The notes beneath the pieces are model-generated. The model made no database searches, was not told the DNA's origin, and worked only from the letters and a program-made list of their open reading frames with translations. From a virus (taxonomy: Duplodnaviria; Caudoviricetes), in the IMG/VR virus record IMGVR_UViG_3300028599_000007, positions 1-46,091 of that record: a DNA stretch of 46,091 nt; one strand, given 5' to 3'. Of this stretch, positions 8,143-46,091 are shown piece after piece (within the stretch, counting starts at the first letter, position 1; every line of letters begins with the position of its first letter). The position numbers and the translations under genes are program-made.

Positions 8143-8152
8143 TTCTTATTAA
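8143..8152 (-). promoter_or_regulatory. Late-gene upstream motif TTCTTAwTAA (representative copy; others at 12821, 13691, 15713, 19127, 19147, 27113, 29049, 43245, 44090, 44136)
   Basis: Constant 40-41 bp distance from the start codons of seven - strand late genes. Confidence 0.7.
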
Positions 8153-8307: not shown

Positions 8308-8347
8308 TTTTTGTTATAACTTTGTGGAGAATCTCCACTATGTTTCT
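8308..8347. repeat. Palindrome-containing repeat, copy 1 (40 bp)
   Basis: tttttgttataactttGTGGAGAaTCTCCACtatgtttct, identical to 19169-19208. Confidence 0.95.
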
Positions 8348-8353
8348 TAATTT

Positions 8354-8569
8354 TTATTTTGTATTGGGAAATCTTTCATCATTCTCTGCATAGATGCTGA
8401 CATGATACTTGTCATCAACCATAAAAGAAATCAAACGTCCTTCAAAAGAAGTTTCTATATTACTGGGATCTAAACCGTTACCATAAACAAATTTTGAATT
8501 TTCACCAAACAGATATTCCTGCTTATCTTTTCTATTTGTCTTTGTTACTTTGTTTACTATCAAGTCCAA
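8354..8569 (-). CDS. Hypothetical protein
   Basis: 71-aa ORF overlapping the end of the upstream gene; start uncertain. Confidence 0.5.
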   Translation of the reverse strand: MDLIVNKVTKTNRKDKQEYLFGENSKFVYGNGLDPSNIETSFEGRLISFMVDDKYHVSIYAENDERFPNTK

Positions 8570-17184: not shown

Positions 17185-17928
17185 TTAAAATATTTTCCTA
17201 GGCTGAAACAATCTGTTGCGAGTGCGTGGATTATTCAAGCTAGCTGCAGTCAGACCACCATAAGTCTCTGTTCCCAATATCTTTTCTATTACGTCATCAA
17301 AGGACTGATCTGCAGTTTGTGGCTGCGTGGCTCCGTTAATTATTACTACAGGTGAATCTCCATGCTGCAAAGACATCCTACCAACAAAGCAACAAATCAT
17401 CAGTGCCTTTGTCAGACCATCTAACTCTTCGCCTGGTGCATAGTATGATACAGTTCCCTGCTCTGTGACGTGCTCTGTGAACATCTCCATCTGTTTGACT
17501 AAATCCTGCATGTCCTTTGTGCGTACCTTCTTTTCATCAATTGGAGGAAACTGTATTGAGTGATTTTGTTTTAGAGATAATGTAAGCTGCGTCATTTCTG
17601 TCATATCCATTACTTTGATTAGCTCAATATCTTCAGGGTCTTTGAGATTCTTTTGTGTGGTTATTGTCTGCACTTCAAACTTTAGTGCGTTTTCCACTGA
17701 GCGAATCAGATGCTGCCCAATTAACTGATCTGCAAATGTCATGTGCCATTTTACCTTATCAAAAATTTGCTTGACGTCATCAGGGATTTGGTTCATCTGT
17801 TCTCTTTTCCATTGCTTGGCTAGCCTGACATATGCCAGCTTCTTGTATGGATCAATTTCTATTCCAACCATACCAAACACTGTTCTTTGTTTTGTGTAGG
17901 ATAGTGCAACGATTAGTTGGTTCTTCAT
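17185..17928 (-). CDS. Degenerate terminase nuclease-like (RNase H fold) paralog
   Basis: Colinear similarity with 18198-18749 (FGMVGI..KKLAYVRLAKQWKREQ; LVKQME..GTVSY..ELDGLTKAL); first catalytic Asp absent. Confidence 0.6.
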   Translation of the reverse strand: MKNQLIVALSYTKQRTVFGMVGIEIDPYKKLAYVRLAKQWKREQMNQIPDDVKQIFDKVKWHMTFADQLIGQHLIRSVENALKFEVQTITTQKNLKDPEDIELIKVMDMTEMTQLTLSLKQNHSIQFPPIDEKKVRTKDMQDLVKQMEMFTEHVTEQGTVSYYAPGEELDGLTKALMICCFVGRMSLQHGDSPVVIINGATQPQTADQSFDDVIEKILGTETYGGLTAASLNNPRTRNRLFQPRKIF

Positions 17929-18119
17929 TGTTTGGAAACCTTCACCAGTGCATCAGCCAATAATTCTAACCATCTATCGTAAGATTGTTTTGCCTCTAAT
18001 AGATTCTTTTCAGCTTCTATAACATTATTTTTTGAAGTGTTAACACCTTCCTTTATTTGGTCTAGCAATGTGGCATTTTTACTCATGTTTTTTCCACTTC
18101 TGTCTTTTCGCAATGCCAT
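17925..18119 (-). CDS. Small coiled-coil hypothetical protein
   Basis: 64-aa ORF with ATGA overlap to the next gene. Confidence 0.55.
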   Translation of the reverse strand: MALRKDRSGKNMSKNATLLDQIKEGVNTSKNNVIEAEKNLLEAKQSYDRWLELLADALVKVSKQ

Positions 18120-18197
18120 TTGTTGTAGTATGGTTGACTGGTAACAACCATGTCTCCTGCAGGTAACTTGCCAATTTCATAAGCCATACGATCAAGT

Positions 18198-18749
18198 TCA
18201 TCTTTGCTGATCCCACCAAATTCTAATTGCATTACATCCTATTAGCTCGCACATAAATAAATCATCATGCCTTCCTCTCTGCCTCTTGTAAGATACGTGG
18301 CCTGATGGTGAAGTTATCCCGACTATCTGATTTCTTTGGTTGATCAGCTCTGCGATGCCATCAGATTTCTTATCATGGTATTGTACAGTGTGTTTCTTGT
18401 ATTCTGTCTTTAACCATTTTATCATGAATGGCTTGTCAACTACCCAGCCATCAGCGTTTGTCTCTTCGGTCAGTCCTGCAGATGTTGAGACGTATTTAAT
18501 TGGAAGGTGTGAAAATGCCTTTGAAACATCCTCATAGTCAAAGTTCTTTTCTAGCATCATCAGGTGAAAGTTAATCTTTTTGTTCATTGATTCAAAATGA
18601 TTTGCAACAGTAGAGTATTTTTCCCTCTTAAACTCAATTGCATGTCTGACGTATATTTTTCTTTCAGGCCAAGTTCCTTGCATTCCAACCACACCAAATG
18701 AATCTCCTGCCTTTGCAGGATCACCTATTAGCAGATTAAGACTTTTCAT
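18198..18749 (-). CDS. Terminase large subunit nuclease domain, stand-alone
   Basis: IGDPAKAGDSFGVV, MMLEKN and GRHDDLFMC: the acidic triad pattern of TerL C-terminal nucleases. Confidence 0.8.
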   Translation of the reverse strand: MKSLNLLIGDPAKAGDSFGVVGMQGTWPERKIYVRHAIEFKREKYSTVANHFESMNKKINFHLMMLEKNFDYEDVSKAFSHLPIKYVSTSAGLTEETNADGWVVDKPFMIKWLKTEYKKHTVQYHDKKSDGIAELINQRNQIVGITSPSGHVSYKRQRGRHDDLFMCELIGCNAIRIWWDQQR

Positions 18750-18875
18750 ATAATTTGATTGGTTCTAAATTGTGTGCATGGTTTAGATATTTGGTTAACA
18801 GTGCTTTCATTTCAGATTCGTTCATTGTTTGTATCACGGTCCGAAATTGGTTTATCGTCAGGTTTATTCCAGGGA

Positions 18876-19106
18876 TCATGATTTTTCGATATCCTCCATA
18901 CTCATAGGTAATGCTGAGAGGATTCTGTTTGTATTTTTTGTGGTTATGATTATCTGTATCTCATCACCTGTATCTTTTACAATTTTTTCTATTTCCTGCA
19001 GTCTATGATAGGTCATCCTTCTTTGCATATCAGAAAGTTTGTAATTGATACATTCCATGAGACAGTGAAGATACTCGGATTTTTGTGCAGCTAGGATTGT
19101 TTTCAT
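18876..19106 (-). CDS. Hypothetical protein between the terminase halves
   Basis: 76 aa, preceded by two TTCTTATTAA motifs. Confidence 0.6.
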   Translation of the reverse strand: MKTILAAQKSEYLHCLMECINYKLSDMQRRMTYHRLQEIEKIVKDTGDEIQIIITTKNTNRILSALPMSMEDIEKS

Positions 19107-19168
19107 GAAAATGATTAGAGTGTATTTTCTTATTAAGACTAATATTTTCTTATTAATTTATCCTAGTC

Positions 19169-19208
19169 TTTTTGTTATAACTTTGTGGAGAATCTCCACT
19201 ATGTTTCT
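19169..19208. repeat. Palindrome-containing repeat, copy 2 (40 bp), overlapping the TerL ATPase stop codon
   Basis: Identical to 8308-8347. Confidence 0.95.
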
Positions 19209-20263
19209 GTTTTTTTCTCATGCCAAAATATTCCATCTGGATCTTTTTCCTCATCATAATCGTCATTATCGTCATTATCGTCATCTGTTAACCATTCAGG
19301 TCTTCCTTGCTGGTCTTCTACAGATACGGTTCCAAAGATTGAATCTCTTCCTGCCTTGTATTGGCATAGATATTCTTGTTCTGGATCTTCTGCAGACGAA
19401 GCAATCATTTCATTTATCTCATCTGTAGTGTAGAGATTTCCCTCAGCTTCCCAGATGTCATAGACAAAGAATACAAAGTCACTTTCGTTATGATCCATGT
19501 CTATCTTGTAAAACATCTTGAGTGGTCCCTTTGGTGTGGATACCAAAAACAGGTCCGCACCGTTTGTTCTTACAATTGGGAGAATTGAATTGAATACTGG
19601 CGTATCATCAACTGTTCTCCATTTGGCTGCCTCATCCATGAATATGCACTTGTATTTTGTGTCACCAGTCAGTGCCTCTTCTGATGCAGAGTATGCCCAG
19701 ACTACAGTGTTATTGACAAGCTTGATGCATATGCCTTCCTTGGTGGACTTCATCCATTGTTCTACTACTGCAGGAATTGACTTGAGCAGTACTGCAAATC
19801 TTCTAAGATCCTTTCTGGCAAGCGTTCCAGTTGTAGCTGCAATGATTGCAACGTTTGCCCCTGCATATCTTGAGAAACAAAGATGTAAAATTATGCGCAA
19901 TACTATTTCAGTAAATCCCATCTGTCTACCTTTCTTGATGTGCATCTTCAGGGCCTTTCTCATCTGGGCTATTGCATCACCAAATGATTTTCTGCCATTG
20001 AAGACTTTGTTTGCAAGATCCACCTGGTATGGTGTGAGTGGCATCTCTTCGTTTGTAGCTGGATGCCTTGGCAATCCTACGATGTGCGTTGTGCAGCATG
20101 TCGCAGTATGTTTGTAATCAGGATTCCTCTCATGTAGTGTATCGTCATCACACCAGAAAGGCAACGTTGCTAACCATTCACATAATTGAAGAGGGGTGGC
20201 CTGTTGATGATCTGTTTGGTCTTTTTGTTCTAGCTCCTCTAGACGAGAATCAAGTGATATCAT
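19199..20263 (-). CDS. terL: Terminase large subunit ATPase domain, stand-alone
   Basis: LTPYQ adenine-binding motif, deviant Walker A KKGRQMGFT, Walker B CIFMDEAA, coupling motif VSTPKG, linker QEYLCQY, then an acidic tail and stop. Confidence 0.88.
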   Translation of the reverse strand: MISLDSRLEELEQKDQTDHQQATPLQLCEWLATLPFWCDDDTLHERNPDYKHTATCCTTHIVGLPRHPATNEEMPLTPYQVDLANKVFNGRKSFGDAIAQMRKALKMHIKKGRQMGFTEIVLRIILHLCFSRYAGANVAIIAATTGTLARKDLRRFAVLLKSIPAVVEQWMKSTKEGICIKLVNNTVVWAYSASEEALTGDTKYKCIFMDEAAKWRTVDDTPVFNSILPIVRTNGADLFLVSTPKGPLKMFYKIDMDHNESDFVFFVYDIWEAEGNLYTTDEINEMIASSAEDPEQEYLCQYKAGRDSIFGTVSVEDQQGRPEWLTDDDNDDNDDYDEEKDPDGIFWHEKKTET

Positions 20264-22966: not shown

Positions 22967-25900
22967 TCATGGTGCAGCCCATACACCATCAGCTCTTAAG
23001 AAATTGGTAGTTCCTCCACCAGATGCAGGCACTAATCCTTTGAGTGCGCTTGTAAAGAGATTAAGTAATGCCGTTGCTCTTGCCAATGTCAATGATTCTG
23101 GAACTCCTGTTCCCGCTGTATCTCTTCCAATGAATGAATTAGTTCCAATGTTTGCCATTTTTGCTAATGTAACTTGTGCATCAGTTATGTTTGCAGTATT
23201 TACTGCATTATTGCCAAGTTCAGTTGTTGTAATTGCATTGGTAGCGATTTGTGCAGCTGTAATTGTATCATTTGATATGTTTGCAGCAGTAATTGTAGTA
23301 GCTGCAATATCGCCACCTGTAACGGAACCAGCTACAATTTGAGATCCTCCGACTGAGTTTGTAGCCATTTGATTAATACCAATAGTTCCATTTGCAATGT
23401 TGGCGTTTGTTATTGTAAGGGCTGCAATTTTTGCACCTGTAACTGCAGCTGTTGCAATTTTCGTACCTGTAACTGCATTGGTTGCTAATACGTCTGCATC
23501 TACAATTCCATTTCCCAAGTTTGCATTTGTAATAGTTCCTGCAGCAATCTTTGCACCTGTAACTGCAGCTGTTGCTATCTTTGTACCTGTAACTGCATTG
23601 GTTGCTAGTTTGTCTGCGGTTACAGCTTGAGTCCCAAGAATTGCAGACGTTACAGTCAAGAGTGCCATCTTTGAACCAGTAACTGTTGCGTTTGCTAATT
23701 TTACACCTGTAATTGTGTTACCTGCAATTTTGTCTGTGGTTACAGCATTGGTTGCAAGCTTTGCACCCGATACTGCCAAGTCTATAAGTTCGCCTGTACC
23801 AACAGCGTTGTTAGCGATTTGAGATGCTCCGACTGAGTTGGCAGCTAGTTGTGTAGCTGTGATAACTCCGTTTCCGATCTTTGCTGCGGTAACTGCAAGA
23901 TCTACTAATTCACCTGTACCAACAGCAGCGTTACCAATTTGAGATATCCCTACAGAGTTGGCAGCTAGTTGAGCAGATGTAATAGTTCCTGCAGCAATCT
24001 TTGCTGCGGTAACTGCCAAAGCTGCTATGTTTACGCCCTCAACTGCATTATTGGCTAGTTCAGATGTTGTAACTGCATTGGTAGCGATTTCAGTGGTTCC
24101 AACAGCTCCTGCATCAATATTCCAGACTGTGCCTCCTGATGAAACGGTTATGTCACCTTTATCTCCATCTGAGACTCCTGCAGCTGCTGCTCCGAAATCA
24201 ACATTTGCACCGTTGGCTCTTCCAAAGAATTGATTTGTAGTTGAGTTATACCATATGGATCCATCTGTTAATACTGAAGGGGTTCCAGCTACATCTCCAA
24301 GTGAAATTCCTGGATTGGTTGCACTATGAGGAAATGTTTGTGTCAATCCTGCAGTGTAGGTATTGGTTTGATCTGTTTGCACTACAGTTGCAGGTAATGT
24401 CAAAGTGACAACACCTGCATTATCCATTGTAGCATCTCCAGACATTGTAACTGCAGTTGCAACACCAGATGCATTTCCTAACCAAAAGTTAGCTGATGCA
24501 ATATTTGGCAGAGATGCATATCTTGAATTGATGAAAACATTCAAAACTCCGTTTGTTGGATTAGCCCTTCCAATTCTGCCAAGAACCTGAATGCTTGCAG
24601 TTCCAGTTGGCCTAACATTTGTAAGTGTGTTGCCAGTTGTTCCAGATGTAGAAAGATAGATTGTTTGATTTGTAGAAAATGCACTTGTATCAAAATCTTC
24701 TAGATTTCCAGTCTCTACTATGAGACCAGTTTGACCATTTGAGATATCCTCTTCAACTATTCCTAGTGCTGGGGTTGGGTCATTGGCATCAGCTAATACT
24801 ACATTTGCCCTGCCAAGACCAACATTCCATGTGTCTTCCCTTACAGCATCGCCTTTTGCCAGAACAGCCCCTGAAGTATTCTGAACTTGAATGTGAACTT
24901 GGTTTGCGTCTATCTTATTTGTGATATCAGTCGCATTAAATCCAACTACATTACCTTGTATGAAATCATGTTCACCGTCACTACTCAGTTTGTATCTTAT
25001 TGTAGGATTCACTGAACCAGTTGGTGTTAGGAAAATTGAATATCTTCCTGGAGTTGAAGTTGCAGAAAAATCGTCATCAGCTGCAATCTGTACTGCCCCA
25101 CCTCTACGCCATGCAGCAACAACATCTCCATCCCATCCATATCCTGTTAAATCAAATAATGTATCATCAAGAGCCGTTACAAGTGGAGAGGCAATTGTTC
25201 CGTTTGCACTTCTTCCTATGAAATTTGCACCATTTCCACCGCCATCATATGTCCTTACATCAACATCGGCAGTTAGTCCTTCAGCCACTACAGTTACAGT
25301 TTCTTGTAAAGTTGGGTTTCCTGCAAATACTAGAGGGCCACCGCCAGTTTCATCATCAATAATTCCTGCGAGTTGTGCAGAAGTTGTATTTGCAAAGAAT
25401 GAAAGGTTATCCGTGTTTCTGGCAATTGATGCATCTAAAGTTACAACTCCTGTGCTTGACATGGTTGCATCACCGCTTACAGTTTGTGGCAATCCATTGG
25501 TTCCAGCGTCACCGATTAGAATTTGTCCGTCTGGAATTTCAACTCCTAGCTGTACAGCTGTAGAACTTGCAAGTGTTATTTTTATTCCCTGAGTTACAGT
25601 CATAGTTTTGAATTGCATCAGTTTTGTAACTGCATCAACAGAATCATACCAATTGATTATTCCAGGACCAGATGCTATATTTTCTCCACCAGCTATTCCA
25701 TAGGGTAAAAACACCAAGTCAGTTGTATCAATAACAATAGGAGCTGGTGTAGTTAGCTGCCATGATGTATCTTTATTCACTAAGCCTTGTGTGATGACAA
25801 TGACTGCCCCAGCTAAGAAATCAACACTGGTTGCATTGAAATCTCCTGGTCTTGTCCAAGCTCCTGCACCTTGAGTAATCCAAACTCCGTTTTCTGATTG

Positions 25901-32501: not shown

Positions 32502-32810
32502 TTAGTTTAATCTCTTCCAGACTTCAGGTTTGTAAGCTGCTTTCATTATCAGCCAGACCAGGATTCCTTCTTTCTTCTTTTCTTGTGCATAATCATAGAG
32601 TAACTGAGATTCCTTTGGGCCGATGTATGGTTTCACGCTTGAGAATTTTAACTGTGCCTCGTGCTTGTATCCTTCCGCATCAGTCCATTCCACATCAGTT
32701 TTACCGAGGGATAATGGATGACGAAGAATTTTTGTTGCACCTTGCTTTTTCATTCTTTTGAGGAATCGTGTCTCATAGGAATTCCCTTTCCTTTTGTTTG
32801 GATGTGTCAT
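32502..32810 (-). CDS. Archaeal-type Holliday junction resolvase (Hjc-like)
   Basis: NKRKGNSYE...TDV...EAQLKFS PD-(D/E)XK pattern, 102 aa. Confidence 0.65.
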   Translation of the reverse strand: MTHPNKRKGNSYETRFLKRMKKQGATKILRHPLSLGKTDVEWTDAEGYKHEAQLKFSSVKPYIGPKESQLLYDYAQEKKKEGILVWLIMKAAYKPEVWKRLN

Positions 32811-33149: not shown

Positions 33150-33704
33150 TCATTTTGCGGTCTCAGAAAATTCTCTAAGATATTCTTCATCCAATACCAC
33201 GTATGGATCACCGCTTCCTTTGGTGTTGGGCATGGAAATGAAATTAACATTATCAATACAGGATCTTATCTCATCCTTGAAGAATTTATGAAAAGGATCA
33301 TGATATTTTTCAGGTACATAGATTGTTTGTATTTGCATAATTTGTGCAGGAATGTTGAATTCTGGAAATGAGTAAATCACATTTACGCCCATGCGACACA
33401 ACTGTTGATTAAAAAACAATTGTACAGCTTCTGCAGTATTGGCTCTCTGTTTTGCCTCGATAAGATATGAGGATTTACCCTTAGTTATGAAAAAATCTGG
33501 CCTGGTCCTTACAAACAGTGAGGACGTGTTATAATATTTTTGCAAGTCAAGTATTTGATTTGCATTAAACTGCTTCTCATATCCGTAATCAATTACCATG
33601 TCATTATCAGAGAGACCAAACCTTTCTCTGATCTCTTGCTCAGTTACTGTGAAACTTTCAGGTTTTATTGTTTGCAATTGCAAGCAGCCTCCGTGCATTC
33701 TCAA
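33150..33704 (-). CDS. PD-(D/E)XK nuclease-family protein
   Basis: RTRPDFFI...LIEAKQR; directly downstream of the MTase; true start probably slightly downstream of the track start. Confidence 0.65.
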   Translation of the reverse strand: MRMHGGCLQLQTIKPESFTVTEQEIRERFGLSDNDMVIDYGYEKQFNANQILDLQKYYNTSSLFVRTRPDFFITKGKSSYLIEAKQRANTAEAVQLFFNQQLCRMGVNVIYSFPEFNIPAQIMQIQTIYVPEKYHDPFHKFFKDEIRSCIDNVNFISMPNTKGSGDPYVVLDEEYLREFSETAK

Positions 33705-34899
33705 AGTGATCTTTGTCTACTTCACAACCAATGAATTGTCTTTCCAGTTTGTTGGCAGAGATTCCAAATGTCCCAGATCCTAAGAATGGATCATAGACAA
33801 TTTCATTTTCTACTGTTGTATGTTTAATGTAATAGTCAGATTCTGCAGTCGATTGAGCCCATTCATGTTCGTCCTTGTCAGGTTTTGTGGATTTGACAAG
33901 ATCAGAAACATAGTCTCCCTCATACTTTCCTTTTGTAAACCATAGCATGGGTTTCCATGCAACCATTGTCTTTGACGCATGAACCGATGTGGATGGTCCT
34001 GAATGAATTATTGCAAGAGGCCAATGAAAGTCCAATCCGTATTTTTTCATAAAATTACAAATTTCAGGTATGTTTTTCTGGCCTACAAAAGTGATTAGAG
34101 AGCCACCATCTTTTAGAACTCTTGCAGCTTGTTTTGCCAGGTCTTCAAACAGGGGAAGAAATTCATCATGGTATGGAGGGTCTGTAAAGATTAGAGATAT
34201 TGAACCATCAGGAATTGGAGCTTTTTGAAATTCACAATTATGAAGGGTGATTGATTCGGGAAGAATAATTTGATCATGTTGAATCTGATCTTCACGTATA
34301 CGTTTCTTTTTTAATTTTTTTAGTTTAATGTAGACTGAATTTGTAGTGGTTTTATTTTCATTGTTATCTATGGCCTCAAACAGCTTGGCAAATTTGGGAT
34401 TTGTTTCAGACTCTTCCTTAATTTCCTCTAATTTTTTGATTGTGTTTGAGGACAATCCAGTATATTCTGCAATCACATCTCTAGATTTCTTCTGTGAACT
34501 TTGTGGAGAATCTCCACTATGTTGATTTATATCATTTCTGTTTCCTTGACGTTTTTTAGCTTCTTTTTTAATCTCAGGCTCTAAGGCATTTTTTATTGAT
34601 AAAACTTCTGACTTTGTAAAATTCTTGCGTACACTATTTTCATGAAATTCACCTAGCGTTAAATCTTCAAGATTTACAATATGAACAGGTATTTCAGTCC
34701 AGCCAATCTTTTTACAAGCTTCAACCCTTCTTTGACCTGCAATCAGATTATAGTTTTCATCAACTACAATCGGATGAAGTAGGCCAATTTCCTTAATGCT
34801 TGAAACCATCATTTCAAGATCTCCAAACTCCTTTCGGAATCTAATACCAATTTGTATTTCAGATATTGGGAGTTTTGGAGTATCTAGTTTTTGTCTCAT
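33658..34899 (-). CDS. ParB/Srx domain + HTH + beta-class N6A/N4C DNA methyltransferase fusion
   Basis: SIKEIGLLHPIVV..LIAGQRRVEA..ENSVRKNF (ParB); SRDVIAEYTGLSSNTI (HTH); FTDPPY preceding YDPFLGSGT (MTase motif IV then I). Confidence 0.9.
   Translation of the reverse strand: MRQKLDTPKLPISEIQIGIRFRKEFGDLEMMVSSIKEIGLLHPIVVDENYNLIAGQRRVEACKKIGWTEIPVHIVNLEDLTLGEFHENSVRKNFTKSEVLSIKNALEPEIKKEAKKRQGNRNDINQHSGDSPQSSQKKSRDVIAEYTGLSSNTIKKLEEIKEESETNPKFAKLFEAIDNNENKTTTNSVYIKLKKLKKKRIREDQIQHDQIILPESITLHNCEFQKAPIPDGSISLIFTDPPYHDEFLPLFEDLAKQAARVLKDGGSLITFVGQKNIPEICNFMKKYGLDFHWPLAIIHSGPSTSVHASKTMVAWKPMLWFTKGKYEGDYVSDLVKSTKPDKDEHEWAQSTAESDYYIKHTTVENEIVYDPFLGSGTFGISANKLERQFIGCEVDKDHFENARRLLAIANNKT
34497..34523. 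repeat. Palindrome-containing repeat, copy 3 (27 bp), inside the ParB-MTase CDS
   Basis: aactttGTGGAGAaTCTCCACtatgtt; encodes (Q)HSGDSPQS just before the HTH. Confidence 0.95.
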
Positions 34900-44730: not shown

Positions 44731-46091
44731 CTAGTTTCCTAGATTTAGATTTCTCAATGCAGTGACAACTTGTATCAATGATGCTCCCACTGGTATTGTC
44801 TGCCTTGCAACAGGTGTTCCACCAAAGAATCCAATCAATGCACCGTTTGCATCTGATGTGCCTCCCTCAATATCTATTCCTGAGACAAGGGTTCCATCAG
44901 AAACTACGCCAAGTTGCACCAGTCCATCTTCTGTTCCACTTGTTATGTCCTGAGAACTGACAGATATTCTACCATAAACCTCATCAGAGCTAGCGGAATT
45001 TTCTGCCATAAAGTCAATGTTTCCCAAGGTTCTGCCATCTGCAGGAGTGTTATTGTTTTGGATTATTTGCAAAACCATTGCAGCGGAATCTATTGTCTCG
45101 GTTCTCCAAGTTGTCGTGGTGTCATTTACGTCAATGGTTGGGTTTGTTCTGCTTGCACCAGTCCATAATTCAACACTATCACCTAGGTTTTCAGATACTA
45201 TTTGGATGGATGTGGCTTGTGCATTAATCGCATGCTGTCTTCCAGATTGTAGGAATTCAATTACATCCTCGTCAATTCTAAAAAATGCATCTCCATTAAT
45301 GTAAAAGTCATGAGTGTTTCCATTCTCAGTTAAATATTTCATACCTCCTGCATCTGCCATTATTGCTTCCCTATTGCCAACTGCAGCTCCAGGGAAAAAC
45401 AGAACCTCTTCAACAAACGCATCGTCCCAAATATTTGATGCGCCTCCGAGATGGAGTGTTCCAGTAGGTACTGGAAGAAGACTTTGGTTTATTGCAGTAG
45501 TGATAAGATTAGACAAGGCAGTATTTGCGCCAACTGCTCCACCAGGAGGCGCAGCCCATGTTCCATCGGCTCGTAAGAAATTTGTAGTTCCTCCACCAGA
45601 ACCTGGAGCTACTCCCTGCAATGAAGTTGTAAAGATGTTAAGTAATGTTGTAGCTTGAGTCCCAGTTAACTCTTCTGTGTTTCCAGCTCCTGCAGTAATT
45701 CTTCCAAGGAATCTGGACGTTGCAGAAACATTTTGCATCTTTGCATATGTTACAGTGTCATTTGGAATCGTAGCTACTCCAGCTGCATTTAGTGTTATGT
45801 CACCTGAAACTGTGGTGTTATCCCATGTATCCACACCATCGTAAATTGGAAGTTGTCCTGCAGATGGTGTAACAATGTCGGTGTCGGTGAGTGCTGCAAA
45901 CGTGGTTGCAGCTACACTGGCTGAAAGATTTCTTACAGCGCCACCTGAAAATACCAATACATCATCTCCATTTCTTCTGAATTGTCCGTTTACAGTTGGA
46001 TCGGTTGCAGCATCAGTGAAAAACAACTGGTCATCAGCTTGTAAGATATTTGCAACTATAGCGTCAATGTTTAACTGGCCAGAGCTTGCGC
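44731..46091 (-). CDS. 3' part of the large tail fibre/adhesin gene (continuation of 2795-1)
   Basis: Same frame and peptide as the end of the 2795-1 ORF; C-terminus IGFFGGTPVARQT..LRNLNLGN. Confidence 0.85.
   Translation of the reverse strand, partial: ASSGQLNIDAIVANILQADDQLFFTDAATDPTVNGQFRRNGDDVLVFSGGAVRNLSASVAATTFAALTDTDIVTPSAGQLPIYDGVDTWDNTTVSGDITLNAAGVATIPNDTVTYAKMQNVSATSRFLGRITAGAGNTEELTGTQATTLLNIFTTSLQGVAPGSGGGTTNFLRADGTWAAPPGGAVGANTALSNLITTAINQSLLPVPTGTLHLGGASNIWDDAFVEEVLFFPGAAVGNREAIMADAGGMKYLTENGNTHDFYINGDAFFRIDEDVIEFLQSGRQHAINAQATSIQIVSENLGDSVELWTGASRTNPTIDVNDTTTTWRTETIDSAAMVLQIIQNNNTPADGRTLGNIDFMAENSASSDEVYGRISVSSQDITSGTEDGLVQLGVVSDGTLVSGIDIEGGTSDANGALIGFFGGTPVARQTIPVGASLIQVVTALRNLNLGN

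Follow-up and report, generated by a model that had tools for sequence, protein, structure and literature searches.

The best-described systems resembling the locus analysed here are ParB/Spo0J-parS and Noc-NBS; the specificity residues of ParB and Noc are said to be the subject of a published study, and in Bacillus subtilis the site parS359 reportedly lies within spo0J. The consulted part of PMC7614844 names parS359 as a site but does not give that location. These CTP clamps combine a ParB N-terminal domain carrying GxxR and ENxxR motifs with a helix-turn-helix (HTH) and a palindromic site of about 15-16 bp, as set out in the relevant sections of PMC7022226 and PMC12704722. The window, by which we mean the whole 46,091-nucleotide stretch of viral DNA analysed, likewise has a ParB N-terminal domain with these motifs, a predicted HTH and a palindrome of about this length. 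Unlike those systems, it has no ParA or ParA-binding peptide, places a palindrome-coded disordered linker before the HTH, carries a methyltransferase (MTase) instead of the C-terminal dimerisation domain, and belongs to a family in which the site varies by gene.

Comparison can also be drawn with KorB, a ParB-like clamp, and with Type II restriction-modification, in which the MTase acts on all DNA in the cell and which, like the window, sets a beta-class MTase fold beside a PD-(D/E)xK gene. Lambda O and other initiators have their origin inside their own gene, with the binding site in the linker codons of the binding protein; unlike the window, they use direct-repeat iterons to start replication and have neither a ParB domain nor an MTase. 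On mobile elements, BisD-bisS of ICEclc, HerB and KorB-OB resemble the window as ParB-like clamps with private palindromes, some of them intragenic, and long-range action, but in the sections concerned they are transcription regulators without an MTase, and bisS sites are found in genes other than bisD (PMC12409273; PMC13370423). Replicon-selective methylation exists in the plasmid-selective enzymes M.EcoGIX and M.BceJIII, although the selectivity of M.EcoGIX is attributed in the pertinent part of PMC7736820 to replication mode, not to a loading site.

The same domain fusion, with a similar phage and prophage spread, is found in phage ParB-N6/N4-MTase and ParB-HTH-Dam/MT-A70 proteins (PMC12704722, PMC4738411, both in the portions consulted). 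The main text of PMC12704722 contains neither "palindrom" nor "inverted repeat" and gives no target site; PMC4738411 ties ParB-terminase loci to packaging, and the portions consulted of these two papers describe no intragenic site, code or adjacent nuclease. A description of the intragenic site, the code or the arrays was likewise not found in the main texts and abstracts covered, among them parts of PMC7556043, PMC6563490 and PMC13371061. The ParB-MTase fusion is already known, and the intragenic site, the code and the arrays, all read from sequence, appear to be undescribed additions.

The window is a whole IMG/VR virus record whose gene content includes portal, capsid, terminase, helicase and integrase. 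Among genome-borne relatives of the ParB-MTase, the closest reside in Nitrosopumilus genomes, where the window's terminase and integrase also have relatives, and we therefore infer a host resembling this ammonia-oxidising archaeon. The IMG/VR topology class of the record is linear. The two ends of the record, 1-571 and 45776-46091, fall in the same tail-fibre-like gene and overlap there; they are 95-98% identical and differ by an indel of about 255 nt, and a circular genome of about 45.5-45.8 kb is therefore plausible. Positions 22971-23135 are similar to 45548-45712, which suggests shared tail-fibre modules. The terminase (17185-20263) is encoded in separate pieces, an ATPase gene followed by two paralogues that are likely nuclease domains, and this layout recurs in the complete related virus G001 and in the element L541. 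Small RHH-like proteins (labelled by eye) are also encoded, and positions 903-918, within a tail-fibre-like ORF, match the canonical bacterial parS (as given in the cited section of PMC12409273) at 15 of 16 positions, a single copy that is probably due to chance.

The central gene (33658-34899, minus strand) encodes a 413-residue fusion of ParB N-terminal domain, linker, HTH and N6/N4 methyltransferase (Pfam PF02195, E 2.6e-10; PF01555, E 4.7e-21). The ParB domain (residues 21-82; 34654-34839, minus strand) was matched by Pfam and by Noc, ParB and Spo0J chains (best E 7e-13), and its profile aligns the nucleotide motifs with those of PDB 7ng0, 6t1f and 6sdk. These motifs, G55-Q-R57-R58 and, just past the Pfam match, E87-N88-x-x-R91, align with Noc, and G55-R57-R58 and E87-N88-R91 are invariant among 18 aligned relatives; loose Box II GxxR and Box III ENxxR patterns are present in 124/124 and 116/124 family genes. 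In an AlphaFold model (mean pLDDT 78), a disordered linker (residues 119-135; 34495-34545, minus strand; pLDDT <50) is directly followed by helices 139-147 and 151-164, which we take as the HTH (residues 139-164; 34408-34485, minus strand) from the model and an alignment by eye, with no library match. The C-terminal part, where the ParB of ParABS systems has its dimerisation domain, is a beta-class amino-methyltransferase (33664-34251, minus strand) with a Rossmann fold and DPPY preceding FLGSG (the FxGxG motif), matching M1.HpyAVI (E 1e-14), M.BceJIV, CcrM and M.PvuII. By sequence, the nucleotide motifs and the catalytic motifs are both intact. The absence of a recognisable ParA, already remarked in an earlier note on this DNA, was borne out: none occurs among 64 ORFs in Pfam (ORFs of at least 70 aa, main frames) or among the PHROG matches listed, and the N-terminus of the ParB-MTase lacks the LG[RK]GL peptide, defined as the ParA-binding motif in the relevant passage of PMC12704722.

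An exact search of the window placed the palindrome GTGGAGA-A-TCTCCAC at 8324-8338, 19185-19199 and 34503-34517, always in one orientation and always within the same 27-mer, whose constituent 20-mers are the only ones occurring three times in the window. An order-2 Markov model predicts 1.4e-4 copies of the 15-mer. With up to 3 mismatches allowed, four matches were obtained, a count reached by 10 of 100 shuffles, so the palindrome signal consists of the three exact copies. The first (8318-8344) is intergenic, directly past the stop of the ORF at 8354-8569 (minus strand); the second (19179-19205) overlaps the terminase ATPase gene (19199-20263, minus strand) at its stop codon; and the third (34497-34523), a 27-bp imperfect palindrome with 11/13 arm pairs around the perfect 7+1+7 core, lies in the ParB-MTase gene. 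There it codes for H127-S134 (HSGDSPQS) in the disordered segment preceding the two helices. The earlier note had reported both the threefold palindrome in an identical 27-bp context and this ParB-HTH linker peptide, and both observations hold; its broader intervals 8308-8347 and 19169-19208 do contain the site, but the full 40 bp is common to copies 1 and 2 only.

The window has further sequence features. One of them is a caveat: a second palindrome of similar arm length is present within the ParB-MTase gene at about 34660-34676, with no other copy in the 21-kb locus tested. The motif TTAATAAG recurs at 8145, 10365, 13693, 15715, 19129, 19149, 22548, 27115, 29051, 43247, 44093 and 44139, mostly upstream of structural genes, and is a candidate late promoter or activator site. 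TTATAAC, found beside copies 1 and 2, was considered as a viral promoter box and set aside as weak, with three of its five occurrences lacking the palindrome; TTAATAAG is the recurring upstream motif.

To follow the linker palindrome across the family, we assembled two gene sets. Set 1 drew on viral, metagenome and genome scans (the best 80 of 457 for the metagenome) followed by a ParB-HTH profile search; after removal of matches short of the HTH and of identical domains it held 80 genes, including one near-identical copy of the window's gene. Set 2, from two viral scans with N-terminal alignments (the best 80 of 399 for the first), held 70 distinct genes after 33 ORFs with no HTH match were dropped. 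Full-length alignments had been rejected as viral-scan queries, yielding mostly MTase-only matches that were lost at the ParB-HTH profile step. Palindromes were scored over the 24 codons preceding the HTH, a score of at least 8 being called strong.

Strong linker palindromes were present in 44 of the 80 set 1 genes versus 0.8% of 1,092 control windows from the same genes, and in 50 of the 70 set 2 genes versus 1.1% of 902 control windows; both sets still contain near-identical genes, so the counts do not represent independent events. The linker palindrome exceeded synonymous recodings of the same peptide in 52/80 and 57/70 genes, respectively. The window's own gene scores 7 on the simple measure (synonymous p 0.10, with another window of the gene scoring 8) and reaches 15/5,000 in a stricter test devised afterwards. 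Each family gene carries its own palindrome sequence, with spacers of 1-2 nt. The intragenic linker palindrome is a family trait.

This trait extends across different C-terminal partners. The 45 set 2 proteins scanned end in an N6/N4, MT-A70 or Dam MTase or in none, and the ParB-HTH module is joined to three MTase families (PF01555, PF05063, PF05869). Among members with no MTase motif, 9/19 have a linker score of at least 8, so the site does not depend on methylation. Three cultured phages that played no part in the fitting likewise combine a linker palindrome, G at base 5 and Arg at the matching HTH position. Some family loci are unusual in layout: L244 and L246 (Nitrosopumilus MAGs) are minimal elements of integrase, ParB-MTase and an HNH-like gene, with the L244 ParB-MTase frameshifted, and in L170 (774-3190) two ParB-MTase paralogues stand in tandem, with a nuclease gene of the window's type after them.

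We then compared HTH residues with half-site bases. The ParB domain was complete in 143 of the 150 genes, and the site was clear in 124; these entered a FastTree phylogeny of 140 columns that excluded the linker and HTH. Mutual information was highest between two recognition-helix residues and bases 2-4 and between the second HTH residue and base 5. Among the 124 genes, the latter residue pairs Arg with G in 57/59, Lys with T in 12/13 and Gln with A in 6/7, and a recognition-helix residue pairs Asp with C at base 4 in 41/43 and Asn, Arg or Lys with G in 29/34. Across independent pairs, with residue classes picked after the data were viewed, Arg-G5 (p 0.004, 12 pairs) and N/R/K-G4 (p 0.008, 10 pairs) were significant; of the nine tests one was borderline and six were not significant, D-C4 (p 0.06), T-T4, R/K-C5, G-C3, Q-A5, D-C5 and K/N-T5 each having at most 7 pairs. 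None of four control pairings was significant.

The same pattern emerges from pairwise comparison. Genes with all three code residues in common at 35-50% ParB-domain identity agree at 99% of half-site bases 2-5, versus 39% of half-site bases for close kin (at least 70% identity) with no code residue in common. When 1,042 residue triplets were ranked, both code positions occurred in 11 of the top 12, and the agreement holds where the rest of the HTH is less than 60% identical (0.93 and 0.73 vs 0.29 and 0.22). In the window, R140 and N152 occupy the code positions for bases 5 and 4 and fit G5 and G4; its R+SSNT helix pairs with GGAGA, as it does in the distant bacterial-type phage genes L329 and L285. 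Because two HTH positions track half-site bases 4 and 5 across independent branches, the HTH very likely binds the palindrome. Co-inheritance of the linker-HTH cassette, whose parts lie about 15-20 codons apart, appears reduced as a source of the covariation.

The number of sites per genome is a separate matter. In the fetched flanks, an exact second copy was found at 2/39 loci versus 0.06 expected from foreign sites. Among whole or near-whole virus records, 3/32 (the window, G001 and G020) had a further copy with at most one mismatch versus 0.57 expected, a count that leaves out one weak-site record and three further fetched records; leaving out the window, it is 2/31. G001 has one exact and one two-mismatch copy. 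The three cultured phages have no extra copies (0/3, with 50 of 55 kb covered for phiAH14a), and the window's site is absent from 34 other virus records, occurring only in a fragment with the same gene. On these counts a multi-copy parS layout was rejected as a general rule. Because extra copies are found in only 3/32 records and 0/3 cultured phages, the single intragenic site is the conserved core and the three-site layout an optional extra. The proposal in the earlier note that site and specificity domain form one cassette is supported by homologues whose linker palindromes co-vary with HTH residues; its expectation that these palindromes would also recur elsewhere in the same genome is not supported as a general rule.

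A search of five gene-carrying Nitrosopumilus genomes for one site type led to palindromes outside the gene. Four non-coding chromosomal stretches in three genomes, all three picked for carrying a ParB-MTase gene elsewhere, each contain 3-6 different family-type palindromes within about 100-270 bp: L489 10141-10420 and L490 9640-9860 (both G006), L493 10200-10470 (G005) and L495 7000-7095 (G007). In 384 windows of 616 bp taken from 12 Nitrosopumilus regions, family-like sites were absent from 356 and single in 24; three or more occurred only in the 4 that contain the arrays. Three arrays adjoin small integrative elements with integrase-, primase-helicase- or HNH-like genes and one adjoins Cas-like genes (labels by eye), and no ParB-HTH gene lies within the 17-20 kb read around each.

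No arrays occurred at 23 other matches in a 301-genome sample (a tally that leaves out locus L525 of genome G256) or at 12 matches in a 401-genome sample. With none at these 35 other matches, arrays are rare, and they were set aside as a general host feature. One integrated G006 element (L541 5950-19056; C1 about 25-38 kb) contains an exact copy of the window's site together with an integrase, a primase-helicase and split-terminase genes that are duplicated and akin to those of the window; the 20 kb read has no ParB gene and no match to the window's capsid or portal. Across the 401 genomes the window's site has two exact copies, a number that chance alone could give. Because the arrays collect foreign sites, they suggest that a site benefits the DNA carrying it; alternatively, they could be decoys that titrate viral proteins.

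Downstream, the ParB-MTase gene overlaps a gene (33150-33704, minus strand) for a PD-(D/E)xK-fold protein with conserved PD...EAK. Pfam, PHROG and PDB gave no meaningful sequence match; the protein model (pLDDT 88) has weak structural matches to Hjc (E 6e-4; TMq 0.27-0.39), RecU and VRR-NUC, with similar Atlas leads. The best of these are Holliday-junction resolvases, not restriction enzymes. From the model, a nuclease fold is likely, and restriction activity would be a guess. A second small nuclease-like gene (32502-32810, minus strand), Hjc-like by eye with no library match, has a G001 homologue that directly follows the ParB-MTase gene.

Across the family, a downstream ORF was identified for 130/150 genes. 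A crude PD/HNH motif, written after the downstream genes had been viewed, was present in 46 of the 87 genes that follow MTase-bearing members within range (21 further genes were out of range) versus 107 of 710 control ORFs; at cluster level, 13 of the 33 clusters in range passed. Sequence searches of Pfam, PHROG and PDB left most downstream genes unnamed, one being HNH in PHROG; the nucleases come from many unrelated clusters, HNH types among them. Seven loci (L315, L357, L362, L363, L373, L377, L382) have a second ParB-like gene downstream instead of a nuclease; these second genes form one cluster, mostly behind MTase-less members, and the member tested matches ParB-like PHROGs.

Our preferred reading, to which we give a probability of about 0.52, is that the protein is a clamp methylase that loads at its own site and shields viral DNA from the neighbouring nuclease. 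The HTH would bind the palindrome written in the enzyme's own linker codons, the ParB domain would close on the site-bearing DNA as a nucleotide-dependent clamp, and the clamp would slide, carrying the MTase along the same molecule; parS-like loading and spreading of this kind is probable. Methylation would then be limited to DNA carrying the site, and such restriction in cis, also proposed in the earlier note, is slightly favoured, with some indirect support from the adjacent nucleases and the multi-site arrays. The methyl mark would protect viral DNA from the predicted nuclease of the neighbouring gene, and it is possible, at somewhat less than even odds, that this nuclease cuts unmarked host or competitor DNA. 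The two extra copies in the window would extend coverage of the 46-kb genome. A site placed in the disordered linker would let site and reading head move and change together, so that each virus may escape mimics.

In favour of such a clamp, ParB-like clamps on mobile elements spread over at least 50 kb according to the section consulted of PMC12409273. Other observations speak against the reading. Under the single-site norm, a lone site would need to cover as much as 135 kb of a record. ParB-fold/SAM-methyltransferase fusions bound ATP, not CTP, in one screen in which 17/28 proteins bound nothing (PMC12704722, in part), and the NTP residues are dispensable in a phage ParB that activates a T-dioxygenase (PMC13229309, in part). 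Because the virus has an integrase, an integrated viral copy would also mark host DNA. A broader and distinctly more speculative version would see a widespread viral self/non-self system, in which the clamp methylase loads at a password in its own gene and marks that molecule alone, the nuclease destroys unmarked DNA of host or rivals, satellites and host islands steal protection with arrays of passwords from many viruses, and a code of two to three residues drives rapid co-diversification of site and HTH.

The strongest rival, less likely but a serious one, is a KorB/BisD-like regulator that binds the site in its own gene, clamps or spreads, and represses the operon, thereby limiting a toxic MTase-nuclease pair; methylation would act in trans as in ordinary restriction-modification, and the extra copies would regulate packaging and tail promoters. 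The rule of a single intragenic site and its retention in MTase-less members are consistent with this, as is the position of copy 2, with two TTAATAAG motifs about 40 nt downstream of it on the minus strand so that it stands upstream of both, and of the G001 extra copy, 54 nt upstream of a small-terminase-like gene (label by eye). Mobile elements with ParB-like regulators are also known (PMC12409273; PMC13370423, in the sections consulted). However, an operator 380 nt into a mid-operon gene would be odd, and autoregulation alone leaves unexplained the fusion to three MTase families, the fast turnover of sites in close kin and the arrays of foreign sites lacking the gene.

A more improbable explanation gives the protein a role in packaging, in the timing of replication or, together with a host ATPase, in partition, for which it would form a mark in cis or a nucleoprotein complex; the nuclease would be a resolvase acting on replication intermediates and have nothing to do with the methyl mark. 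It draws on the resolvase-like best matches of the nuclease, the proximity of extra copies to terminase genes in the window and G001, the exact copy of the window's site in the terminase-bearing G006 element, and phage ParB-terminase loci whose MTases are predicted, in the part consulted of PMC4738411, to modify DNA for packaging. Against it, ParA and the LG[RK]GL peptide are absent, the ParB-MTase gene lies 13 kb from the terminase, the chance level of the two exact copies in 401 genomes weakens the G006 match, and the unrelated downstream nuclease clusters, HNH among them, would fit swapped restriction partners better than a fixed resolvase. Least probable is a palindrome that the protein does not bind and that is carried along with the adjacent HTH, as an mRNA hairpin or as a scar of recombination, the extra copies being duplications or sites of another regulator such as the RHH-like proteins: linker and HTH are indeed tightly linked, but 1-2 nt spacers are too short for a hairpin loop, the covariation is position-specific, absent in four controls and persistent across dissimilar HTHs, and the arrays carry sites without the gene.

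ParB-methyltransferase fusions are common in phages and have had no known target. Under the preferred reading of a self-loading clamp methylase, the site of each fusion can now be predicted by reading its gene, with a simple residue-base code to go with it, and binding and local methylation become directly testable, including in the cultured Methanoculleus virus Blf4 and Pseudomonas phage phiAH14a. Should methylation prove to be limited to DNA in cis, self and non-self would be told apart by molecule rather than by cell, and the family would constitute a natural set of DNA-marking enzymes, orthogonal to one another and addressed by site. As for the multi-site arrays, they would be a new form of mobile-element mimicry.
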